Sequence record: KT184316.1
Direction: 5' to 3' (one strand)
Length of the DNA: 64,000 nucleotides
From: Enterobacteria phage XTG1
Positions 63,327-64,000 of this stretch are shown here, in pieces. The notes under the pieces were generated by a model that was not told the origin of the DNA, did no database searches, and saw only the letters and a list, made by a program, of their open reading frames with translations. Position 1 is the stretch's first letter. Each line of letters opens with the position of its first letter. A program made the translations under genes and the position numbers.

Positions 63327-63355
63327 TTGACAATGTGTTTAATACCCTTTAATAT
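63327..63355 (+). promoter_or_regulatory. Promoter TTGACA-17-TAATAT upstream of the tRNA cluster
   Basis: TTGACA 63327-63332, TAATAT 63350-63355. Confidence 0.5.
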
Positions 63356-63417
63356 GTTCTACATAGAAACGAAATGAGAGCTTTTCTAAGATACTGAAAA
63401 ATATTTTAAAAAAGTTC

Positions 63418-63446
63418 TTGACAACCACTAAAAAATAATGTTAAAG
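63418..63446 (+). promoter_or_regulatory. Second promoter-like element upstream of the tRNA cluster
   Basis: TTGACA 63418-63423 with an AT-rich -10 candidate 17 nt downstream. Confidence 0.4.
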
Positions 63447-63473
63447 TGGTTACATAGAGTTTGAAAAGTTTAT

Positions 63474-63550
63474 CTCTGTTTAGCTCAGCTTGGTAGAGCG
63501 TTCCGTTTGGGGCGGTAAGGCCGGAGGTTCAAGTCCTCCAACAGAGACCA
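63474..63550 (+). tRNA. tRNA-Pro (anticodon UGG), CCA encoded
   Basis: Hand-folded cloverleaf: acceptor ctctgtt/aacagag, D-arm gctc-agcttggta-gagc, anticodon loop tttgggg, T-arm ggagg-ttcaagt-cctcc; one mismatch in the anticodon stem. Confidence 0.7.
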
Positions 63551-63557
63551 AATTAAT

Positions 63558-63635
63558 GTTCCAGTAGACAAAACGGTAAAGTCACCACTCTTTCAAAGTG
63601 GATATTTGAGGGTTCAAATCCCTTCTGGAACGCCA
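63558..63635 (+). tRNA. tRNA-Glu (anticodon UUC), CCA encoded
   Basis: Acceptor gttccag/ctggaac fully paired; anticodon stem ccact/agtgg, loop ctttcaa; T-arm gaggg-ttcaaat-ccctt. Confidence 0.7.
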
Positions 63636-63636
63636 G

Positions 63637-63726
63637 TTTTGACAGAAGACCAATTACAGCAAACTTAATCTTATTCATCTGAAGGTAAATCGGACAAAGA
63701 AGAGATTTGGTCTGGTCATTAAGAAT
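63637..63726 (+). repeat. Inter-tRNA spacer element A1 (conserved hairpin)
   Basis: ttttgacagaagaccaattacagcaa…atttggtctgg; stem agaccaa/ttggtct. Confidence 0.5.
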
Positions 63727-63803
63727 TGCGGGTATAGAGAAAGGGCGTCTCACATGTCTCATTAGCATGGTATCGGCAGGGTCGACTCCTGCACCCGCCT
63801 CCA
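63727..63803 (+). tRNA. Non-canonical tRNA-like element (possible tRNA-Met/Ile, CAU) or pseudo-tRNA
   Basis: D-stem gaga/tctc and anticodon arm catgt-ctcatta-gcatg fold well, but acceptor and T-arm registers conflict by one nucleotide and the T-loop reads GTCGACT. Confidence 0.35.
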
Positions 63804-63804
63804 A

Positions 63805-63883
63805 TTTTGCAGAAGACCGTTTACAGCAACAAAAATACTTTTTGCGGATAAAAGAAAAAAAACACGGTCTGGCAATGTATTAA
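63805..63883 (+). repeat. Inter-tRNA spacer element A2 (paralogue of A1)
   Basis: ttttgcagaagaccgtttacagcaa…cacggtctgg; stem agaccgt/acggtct, so two stem positions co-vary relative to A1. Confidence 0.5.
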
Positions 63884-63960
63884 GGTTAGGAAGCACATAA
63901 GGGATGTGCGGTCGCCTGTTAAGCGAATGGCACAGGGGTCGAATCCCTGACTAACCGCCA
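63884..63960 (+). tRNA. tRNA-Asn (anticodon GUU), CCA encoded
   Basis: D-arm gcac-ataagggat-gtgc; anticodon loop ctgttaa; T-arm caggg-gtcgaat-ccctg; acceptor ggttagg/actaacc with one mismatch; position 8 is A, which is unusual. Confidence 0.55.
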
Positions 63961-64000
63961 AATTAAATGTGTCGTTATCCCGTAGATGGTAGCGGGGGGG

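Follow-up and report, generated by a model that had tools for sequence, protein, structure and literature searches.

A Ro60-like protein of a Felix O1-like phage and the ACAGCAA-handle RNAs that accompany its gene family

The 64,000-nucleotide (nt) stretch of Enterobacteria phage XTG1 analysed here (KT184316.1; hereafter the window) carries, close to its 3' end, a gene for a 471-aa protein followed by a cluster of transfer RNA (tRNA) genes. Two of the spacers between these tRNA genes belong to an RNA family that was defined independently in distant phages. Its members carry a "handle", in which a covarying end-to-end stem stands beside a single-stranded ACAGCAA motif, and they recur next to genes for relatives of the same protein. 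The protein itself is Ro60-like in predicted fold and architecture, yet belongs to a separate sequence family. Judged by synteny and by analogy with known systems, what the locus encodes is probably a phage equivalent of the Ro60-Y RNA ribonucleoprotein. Such particles are known from animals, from about 5% of bacteria and from a few phages with canonical TROVE proteins. The last 2.2 kb of the window share 97-99% identity with many Felixounavirus genomes, the nearest being vB_EcoM_ASO1B (98.7%), and on this identity the phage is assigned to Felixounavirus, the Felix O1-like myoviruses that infect E. coli and Salmonella.

The protein is encoded on the plus strand at 61893..63308 and combines an N-terminal helical, TROVE-like ring with a C-terminal von Willebrand factor A (vWA) domain bearing a complete MIDAS (an adhesion site dependent on metal ions), as judged from the Pfam domains DUF2828 and DUF7788 and from the predicted fold. 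An initial annotation, made from the sequence alone, had noted a 471-aa vWA protein with a DxSxS MIDAS motif, and both the reading frame and the motif hold, with D279-x-S281-x-S283, T349 and D381 invariant among 55 homologues. An AlphaFold2 model built on the 55-sequence alignment reached a predicted local distance difference test (pLDDT) score of 88.8 and a predicted template modelling (pTM) score of 0.89, and a TROVE-type ring of HEAT-like helical repeats is recognisable in it by fold. In a Foldseek comparison with the PDB, the top ten matches were all full-length Ro60/TROVE structures (expectation (E) values 2e-8 to 6e-7, template modelling (TM) scores 0.51-0.67, about 520-545 columns), including Xenopus and human Ro60, Deinococcus Rsr and the Ro60 of Thermus phage phiLo; all matches below them were isolated vWA domains. 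In support of the link, Pfam vWA_Ro60 was weakly matched by 14 of the 55 family members (best E 1.7e-4). The nearest folds in BFVD were DUF2828/DUF7788 proteins of phages and of giant viruses of protists, which also carry DUF2828-type Ro60-like proteins, followed by phage proteins annotated as TROVE or 'Ro-like'. The DUF2828 family comprises 8,985 clusters at 50% identity, the top 150 matches being unnamed proteins of 449-551 aa. Homologues were found in 709 of 50,697 phage records, and some of the mycobacteriophage members are annotated as 'Ro-like RNA binding protein'.

On the RNA side, the spacers at 63636-63726 and 63804-63883 are paralogues, lie nearly flush with the tRNA ends and have UUACAGCAA after the 5' helix strand in each. 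The RNA of the first spacer, c1 (63640..63718, plus strand), has an outer helix UGAC/GUCA, a loop of AGA versus G, an inner helix AGACCAA/UUGGUCU, a single-stranded UU-ACAGCAA (ACAGCAA at 63656-63662) and a variable 44-nt loop. The second, c2 (63807..63875, plus strand), has UUGC/GCAA as its outer helix, the same AGA versus G loop, AGACCGU/ACGGUCU as its inner helix, a single-stranded UU-ACAGCAA (ACAGCAA at 63823-63829) and an A-rich 34-nt loop. Both the inner 7-bp stem and the outer 4-bp helix covary between the two copies, and minimum free energy (MFE) folds of c1 and c2 give the same bipartite terminal helix, with a 4-bp outer part, an asymmetric AGA/G loop and a 7-bp inner part. From the feature coordinates, c1 and c2 stand 331 and 498 nt 3' of the stop codon of the Ro60-like gene. 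Two other readings of the spacers were discarded: they are not terminators, having no U tract, and as small open reading frames (ORFs) they offer only overlapping frames with TTG or GTG starts that cross the tRNAs.

Comparison across three genera of Ounavirinae showed that the handle and ACAGCAA are kept while the loops diverge with insertions and deletions. The inner helix changes in a G.U-compatible manner, and the c2 outer helix UUGC/GCAA is replaced, in compensatory fashion, by UUAC/GUAA in locus L009 and in phage Sf14. ASO1B has two more copies, c3 and c4, after tRNA-Asp and thus beyond the end of the window. All four copies were found by covariance model in Sf14 (Mooglevirus) and CHB7 (Suspvirus), giving four per Felix-type genome.

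The family was delimited on 80 IMG/VR loci encoding relatives of the window protein, 75 of them at 38-47% identity and five being near-identical Felixounavirus contigs. ACAGCAA recurs in these loci on the gene strand, close upstream or downstream of the ORF, and a constant 7 nt separate it from a preceding AG. The handle can be written 5'-A-AG-N7-ACAGCAA...N'-CU-G-3': an A opposite a G, invariant A-U and G-C pairs, about five covarying pairs, two spacer nt and the single-stranded ACAGCAA. When a descriptor consisting of AG, stem, spacer, ACAGCA, loop, complementary stem and CUG was run over 1.06 Mb, it returned 74 matches on the strand of the gene, whereas the opposite strand gave 2 and shuffled sequence 2-5; c1 also satisfies the descriptor. 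In 41 elements from outside Felixounavirus, 87% of the alignment cells are paired, four stem positions each show 3-5 pair types, and the covariation score is 0.644 versus 0.166 in shuffled alignments (0 of 500 reach 0.644); these sequences were pre-selected for at least 4 paired positions, which tells against taking the score at its full value, and only the fifth variable pair (38 of 41 paired) is free of this selection bias.

A covariance model, R2, was then built from 24 natural elements, none of them from Ounavirinae. It superseded a model R1 made from loop-trimmed sequences, which was dropped because it did not span real loops and matched generic hairpins in the window. In an unfiltered search of both strands of the 64-kb window, R2 placed c2 first (63809-63876, 31.3 bits, E 3e-4) and c1 second (63642-63719, 26.9 bits, E 2.5e-3), the next match having an E value of 0.54. 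The window spacers are thus members of a family defined without them, and the earlier proposal of two paralogous spacers whose covarying stem marks a conserved RNA structure is borne out. No description of an ACAGCAA-handle family was found in Rfam 15 or in the literature searched, where the motif string returned only small interfering RNA sequences, and the family appears to be undescribed so far.

The elements follow the DUF2828 gene closely. A census with R2 (79 loci, threshold E<=0.1) gave 62 matches in 45 loci, all 62 on the strand of the gene and 53 of them no more than 500 nt from the DUF2828 ORF. Fifteen lie 5-43 nt upstream of the start codon (13 of these at 5-12 nt), and 10 have their first nucleotide at most 60 nt past the stop codon. 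In the leader copies, which are minimal forms of the handle, the Shine-Dalgarno sequence stands directly 3' of the CUG, as in CUG-GAGG or CUG-AAGGA, the hairpin ending 0-3 nt before it. Genes for tRNA or transfer-messenger RNA occur in 27 of 60 scanned loci, and many element-bearing loci have none at all, which indicates that the element follows the gene and not the tRNAs.

This association extends over very different phages. Klebsiella phage FBKp34 (Stephanstirmvirinae) encodes a protein of 52% identity, and here too a tRNA cluster follows the gene; three to four elements bearing the motif, one of which has a permuted tRNA-like loop, occupy the 480-nt gap. Elements found by R2 adjoin the gene in Listeria phage LP-083-2 and in a Staphylococcus phage (three tandem copies in each), as well as in Enterococcus, Bacillus, Campylobacter and Cronobacter phages. 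In mycobacteriophage BigCheese, three tandem copies after the 'Ro-like' gene were read by eye, the covariance model reaching only E 0.24; the handle takes the variant form UGG...CCAG in these copies, of which the middle one carries a permuted tRNA-like loop. The handle motif is accordingly present in phages of Proteobacteria, Firmicutes and Campylobacterota by covariance model and of Actinobacteria by eye, in mycobacteriophage.

Several annotated tRNAs overlap or resemble these elements. In FBKp34 (locus L003, 10003-10116), a 114-nt 'tRNA-Asp' has extra sequence inserted between D arm and anticodon arm, in which the hairpin CUUCUUAGAGAAG is followed by UUUUACAGCA, handle-like, inside an otherwise normally ordered tRNA. 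In Cronobacter phage S13 (L094, 4396-4638), annotations of 113-121 nt as tRNA-Ser or OTHER coincide with or adjoin handle RNAs. A metagenomic phage contig with a DUF2828 gene and handle RNAs (L075) also shows, at 4253-4443, a group I intron-like match (RF00028, 40.9 bits, gathering score 50) just upstream of two tRNA genes.

Besides the short forms, long forms of the handle RNA are found. In c4 of the Felixounavirus relatives, a 102-nt loop holds a hairpin resembling an anticodon arm, then a T arm (GAAGG-UUCGAUU-CCUUC), an acceptor-like hairpin of 7 bp and a hairpin resembling a D arm; the loop is a circularly permuted tRNA with the handle at its open end. The same permuted module was seen in the Klebsiella element e3, in loci L045 and L078 and in the BigCheese middle copy, c1 and c2 being without it. 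The 129-nt 'tRNA-Thr' that tRNAscan-SE annotation places across c3/c4 in ASO1B (L002, 8437-8565) is probably a mis-call of this permuted, tRNA-like long form. Loop modules differ among phages: loci of the vibriophage type share a CCUUUCUGGAGGGGAAAG...CUCGCC module. Long handle RNAs at L011 5276-5371, L012 3133-3233, L016 149-281, L019 1265-1374 and L031 5734-5829 have in common a loop module ...GAACCUUUCUGGAGGGGAAAGCAAAAACUCGCCAAAA..., which is not tRNA-like and could represent a second type of effector. Such an exchange of loop modules between phages matches the handle-plus-effector logic of Y RNAs.

The resemblance to Ro60-Y RNA particles concerns both partners. The fold predicted for the protein is the ring-plus-vWA/MIDAS arrangement; the phage small RNAs lie on the same strand as the gene and within a few hundred nt of it; and the 5' and 3' ends of the handle RNA pair, as in Y RNAs, into a stem beside a conserved single-stranded motif. 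Like YrlB and YrlA, the phage RNAs occur in short and long forms, the long ones having the YrlA order of T arm, acceptor hairpin and D arm. Moreover, Listeria phage LP-083-2 carries, on the strand of its DUF2828 gene and 1.3 kb downstream of that gene, a gene for an RtcB-like tRNA-splicing ligase (L089, 5315-6458), an arrangement that fits the RNA-repair context of bacterial Rsr, the Salmonella rsr-yrlBA genes lying in the rtcBA operon. In the systems described previously, YrlA RNAs are encoded no more than 4 kb from the Ro60 gene and on the same strand; a conserved motif stands near their 5' end, and T, acceptor-like and D stem-loops come after it. Mycobacteriophage YrlA as well as Salmonella and Mycobacterium Rsr with YrlA/YrlB were known from the same work, whose survey was confined to genomes in which a TROVE protein is annotated (Chen et al., 2014, PMC4201824). 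Furthermore, the Ro60 of Thermus phage phiLo binds two adjacent Y-like RNAs, Yrl1 and Yrl2, together with host PNPase (PMC12135203).

A close relative of the window protein has already been connected with Ro60. Gp130 of phage Bas63, a Felixounavirus by the description of the authors themselves, is structurally Ro60-like, is encoded directly upstream of tRNA genes and acts against the ppl defence system; as a guess, its authors suggested that Y RNAs might be among the annotated tRNAs, and no RNA partner was identified in that work (PhageMaP preprint, 10.1101/2024.10.10.617714). From its genus and position, gp130 is probably the ortholog of the window protein. The Ro60 likeness of the protein was therefore already known from this 2024 preprint; what appears to be new is the candidate partner RNA family, together with its breadth. 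Unlike in the Bas63 account, the candidates here are unannotated spacers and not annotated tRNAs, and the family reaches far beyond Felixounavirus.

Several observations weigh against a Ro60-Y RNA-type particle. The initial annotation had pointed to TROVE/Ro60 family profiles and Y-RNA covariance models as places where a Ro60 link should appear, and these profiles and models largely miss the locus. Pfam TROVE (PF05731) gave no match with the window protein at E<=1 or with the 55 homologues at E<=5. A profile search against PDB sequences ranked Ro60 second and third, with E values no better than 0.29 and 0.61 and through the vWA part, and neither an NCBIfam search nor phmmer against the PDB gave a significant match with the window protein. 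Unlike Ro60, the phage protein thus belongs to the DUF2828/DUF7788 sequence family, which is invisible to Pfam TROVE; taken with the fold matches, these negatives place its kinship with Ro60 at the level of fold and architecture and not of current family models. The RNAs are similarly distant. Rfam Y_RNA (RF00019) and YrlA (RF02553) had no match in 61800-64000 at E<=10, and YrlA does not match c4 of Felixounavirus; with the BigCheese long form it gives an end-to-end alignment, which scores 21.7 bits versus a threshold of 69. The conserved motif ACAGCAA, with its A.G/A-U/G-C stem base, differs from the known Ro60-binding motifs GGUCCGA and GNCGAAG (GNCGAAN0-1G), and for GGCGAAGG in c4, variable loop plus T stem is a better reading than a Ro60 motif. 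Also unlike Y RNAs, many phage copies sit in the leader of the gene at its Shine-Dalgarno sequence, and those of Felix-type phages are embedded in a tRNA polycistron. The folding energies of the two spacers are unexceptional (z -1.1 and -1.2), so that support for their structure is comparative and not energetic. In addition, 34 of the 79 census loci have no element at E<=0.1. Gp130 acts against ppl when expressed by itself, whether plasmid- or T7-borne, which means that the anti-ppl activity does not need phage RNAs (10.1101/2024.10.10.617714). Finally, the pairing of protein and RNA rests on synteny and analogy.

The Ro60-Y RNA-type particle is nevertheless the reading that we favour, and a mechanism can be outlined for it. 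In Felix-type phages, RNAs of about 70-90 nt would be freed from the tRNA precursor when RNase P cleaves at the next tRNA and the 3' end of the previous one is trimmed. The Ro60-like protein would bind the handle formed by the paired RNA ends, which is its predicted binding site by analogy with Y RNAs. The variable loop may then act as an exchangeable second module, sometimes a tRNA mimic, that recruits or decoys tRNA-directed factors. A handle in the leader would let the protein repress its own translation. The particle as a whole may serve RNA surveillance or protection tied to the phage tRNA set, as well as counter-defence.

Among the alternatives, the one that survives best, although we consider it unlikely, is that recognition of the handle falls to another phage protein or to a host factor (an RNase or a chaperone, for instance), or that the handle acts purely in cis, with no Ro60/Y-type particle involved. 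The 15 of 62 elements that form leader hairpins by the ribosome-binding site are typical of cis regulators, gp130 acts on ppl without phage RNAs, and binding between handle and DUF2828 protein is proposed by analogy. However, the DUF2828 gene is the only neighbour common to very different phages, and it encodes a fold predicted to bind RNA. The Felixounavirus copies lie downstream of this gene, between tRNAs and behind separate promoter-like sites found by consensus scan only, and from that position they cannot act in cis on its translation. Tandem arrays and tRNA-like long forms, moreover, resemble trans-acting RNAs.

It is less probable still, and by our estimate quite improbable, that the spacers are only processing or spacing signals of the tRNA precursor (guides for RNase E or RNase P, or insulators) and that the adjacency to the vWA gene is incidental. 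Such a role would suit their ordinary folding energies and their nearly flush fit to the tRNA ends in the window and in L010. Extra stable RNAs in phage tRNA clusters are also known: the tRNA region of phage T5 (L096, record positions 30284-41566) carries annotations of eight 'stable RNAs with unknown functions', part of which are described as tRNA-like. These T5 RNAs (I, III, IV, 1, 2, 2H, 3 and X) resemble the window spacers as small RNAs between tRNA genes and are annotated as stable and co-processed; species 1 and 2 of phage T4 are further stable non-tRNA RNAs in a phage tRNA cluster. In contrast to the handle-bearing phages, T5 has no DUF2828 gene and its tRNA region has no handle motif: over 40 kb of its tRNA-rich DNA, the best R2 match reached E 0.12 on the strand opposite the tRNA genes, which marks the T5 RNAs as unrelated to the handle family. 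Handles beside DUF2828 genes in many loci without tRNA genes already contradict an occurrence confined to tRNA precursors, the leader hairpins abut the Shine-Dalgarno sequence of the gene, and strict conservation of ACAGCAA in phages of four bacterial phyla (three by covariance model, one by eye) is unexpected of a generic spacer. Least credible of all is that the spacers are functionless decayed tRNA genes or small mobile repeats multiplied in the tRNA cluster: the four copies per Felix-type genome, the 129-nt 'tRNA-Thr' mis-annotated across c3/c4 and the tRNA-derived arms of the long forms would agree with it, but the handle is kept while loops drift, compensatory changes keep the helices, the elements keep strictly to one strand and to the neighbourhood of the gene, and the same motif spans Proteobacteria, Firmicutes, Campylobacterota and, by eye in mycobacteriophage, Actinobacteria.

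Between c1 and c2 lies a further element (63727..63803, plus strand), a non-canonical tRNA with a CAU anticodon and encoded CCA, which is the sole tRNA with handle RNAs on both sides. ARAGORN calls it tRNA-Met(CAU), as does the tRNAscan-SE annotation of ASO1B, and its MFE fold is a cloverleaf. The inconsistent acceptor/T-arm register noted at the outset is real: the acceptor stem has 6 bp (7 bp if a U1.C72 mismatch is counted), and owing to one additional nucleotide at positions 8-9, three nt lie between acceptor and D stems; position 37 is U. The Rfam tRNA model did not match the element even at E<=10, nor its relatives, including those with T54, which in the window is replaced by a window-specific G at 63781. 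Across genera the T stem changes in a compensatory manner (CAGG/CCUG, UUGG/CCAA, UAGG/CCUA), and the D and anticodon arms are invariant. This conservation in three genera marks the element, on comparative grounds, as a functional RNA, and it is most simply a specialised tRNA.

Whether it has anything to do with the Ro60-like system is a separate matter. We lean, with some reservation, towards an ordinary if odd tRNA, either elongator Met or Ile2 after lysidine modification, that is unrelated to that system. The two tRNA-Met calls, the encoded CCA, the cloverleaf fold, the strong conservation with T-stem covariation and the fact that the genuine handle RNAs are the flanking spacers all speak for this view. 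Against it stand the failure of the Rfam model even on relatives with T54, the combination of U37, the 1:72 mismatch and the extra nucleotide before the D stem, the unique flanking by handle RNAs on both sides, and the presence of another, canonical CAU tRNA in the cluster. The speculative link to Ro60-type particles raised in the initial annotation is supported, with adjustments: the fold of the protein and an RNA family that tracks its gene bear it out, but the CAU element is likely not the candidate partner RNA, the spacer hairpins and their long tRNA-like relatives being likelier.

A resemblance outside the phages was also observed. According to the database description of the family, DUF2828 occurs in eukaryotes as well. 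The Rfam model of Dictyostelium Class I RNAs (RF01414, gathering score 41.5) gave sub-threshold matches with c2 (30.2 bits, 63815-63871) and c1 (19.7 bits, 63648-63714) and with two mycobacteriophage elements (18.9 and 14.3 bits; L088 4011-4057 and 4144-4205). At E<=1 it matched none of five other phage loci, so that the resemblance is not uniform across the handle family. Class I RNAs are 42-65 nt long, their ends form a short covarying stem with an invariant 5' G, and they have been described as unique to dictyostelids, with a mechanism unknown; the sole demonstrated binder is the RNA recognition motif protein Rnp1A (Kjellin et al., 2021, PMC7919456). Their consensus G-AUCUC-CUU-ACAGCAA...GAGAU-C-UG mirrors the phage handle, with a motif ending in UUACAGCAA after the 5' strand, then a variable A/U-rich loop and a 3' C-U-G. 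Unlike in the phage handle, the spacer between stem and motif is 3 nt and not 2, and Class I RNAs are eukaryotic and polymerase-transcribed from dispersed genes. The phage elements are not themselves assigned to Class I, all matches being below 41.5 bits and the source a phage rather than a dictyostelid with a DUSE promoter.

By analogy, handle RNAs might be cognate ligands of the whole DUF2828 branch, with Class I RNAs as its eukaryotic members, that is, as amoebal 'Y RNAs' of a DUF2828-type protein. We regard this extension as doubtful. A possible DUF2828-type partner is DDB_G0281243, an uncharacterised protein recovered in a DdR-21 pull-down, of which a literature search gave no further mention.

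The remaining features of the locus are all on the plus strand. In relatives, about 26 clustered tRNA genes fill the stretch from the 471-aa ORF to the terminase genes. A sigma-70-like promoter, TTGACA-18-TAAAGT (61824..61853; 10 of 12 consensus matches), precedes the Ro60-like gene and carries a promoter annotation in ASO1B, its function being presumed. Just 3' of the stop codon, a promoter/terminator scan found a 12-bp inverted repeat (63319..63350) that overlaps a second promoter-like site (63327-63355) and may act as terminator or promoter. A further sigma-70-like site by consensus scan, TTGACA-18-TAAAGT with TG (63418..63447), lies before the tRNA/small-RNA cluster. The cluster opens with tRNA-Pro(UGG) (63474..63550; ARAGORN, Rfam tRNA 57.7 bits) and tRNA-Glu(UUC) (63558..63635; ARAGORN, 60.6 bits); c1, the CAU element and c2 follow, and then tRNA-Asn(GUU) (63884..63960; Rfam match 63884-63957, 39.8 bits versus 48 bits in ASO1B), which the ARAGORN run on the window did not call. 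All four complete tRNA or tRNA-like genes (Pro, Glu, CAU and Asn) encode CCA. The three canonical tRNAs with encoded CCA proposed initially are thus confirmed by ARAGORN, the Rfam model or both, and the fifth tRNA suspected at the window end is the 5' part of tRNA-Tyr(GUA) (63969..64000), cut 32 nt in and collinear with the annotated tRNA-Tyr of TP1 and ASO1B.

Five T>G differences from all close relatives fall within the last 300 nt, at 63704, 63781, 63903, 63938 and 63996, with no further T>G relative to ASO1B from about 56600 to 63700. They affect T54 of two tRNAs and one D-loop base, which are invariant tRNA positions, and the window ends in GGGGGGG. These differences are probably sequencing or assembly errors near the contig end; they depress the score with the tRNA model, and those within tRNA-Asn (63903 and 63938) probably explain why ARAGORN missed it. 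Immediately upstream of the Ro60-like gene lies a 123-aa ORF (61440-61811), whose counterpart in the RefSeq record TP1 is a DUF5681 domain protein; it is kept at this position in the three Ounavirinae genera examined and is not conserved beside the DUF2828 gene in other phages.

Altogether, the locus points to a second, much larger Ro60-like branch with its own uncatalogued partner RNA family. The DUF2828 family is present in Felix O1 relatives, KVP40-like vibriophages, Listeria phages of the genus Pecentumvirus (that of P100) and Campylobacter phage CP8. Its RNAs show the modular logic of Y RNAs, in which a constant handle is joined to a variable effector module, tRNA mimics included. Handle RNAs account for gaps without annotation and for spurious 'tRNA' calls of excessive length in many phage tRNA clusters, where stable non-tRNA RNAs, as in T5, have been an old unexplained observation. 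The leader copies suggest translational autoregulation of the gene in many phages. For the Class I RNAs of dictyostelids, which are abundant and developmentally required, the likeness to the handle provides a concrete hypothesis. The proposed binding site is simple, conserved and directly testable.

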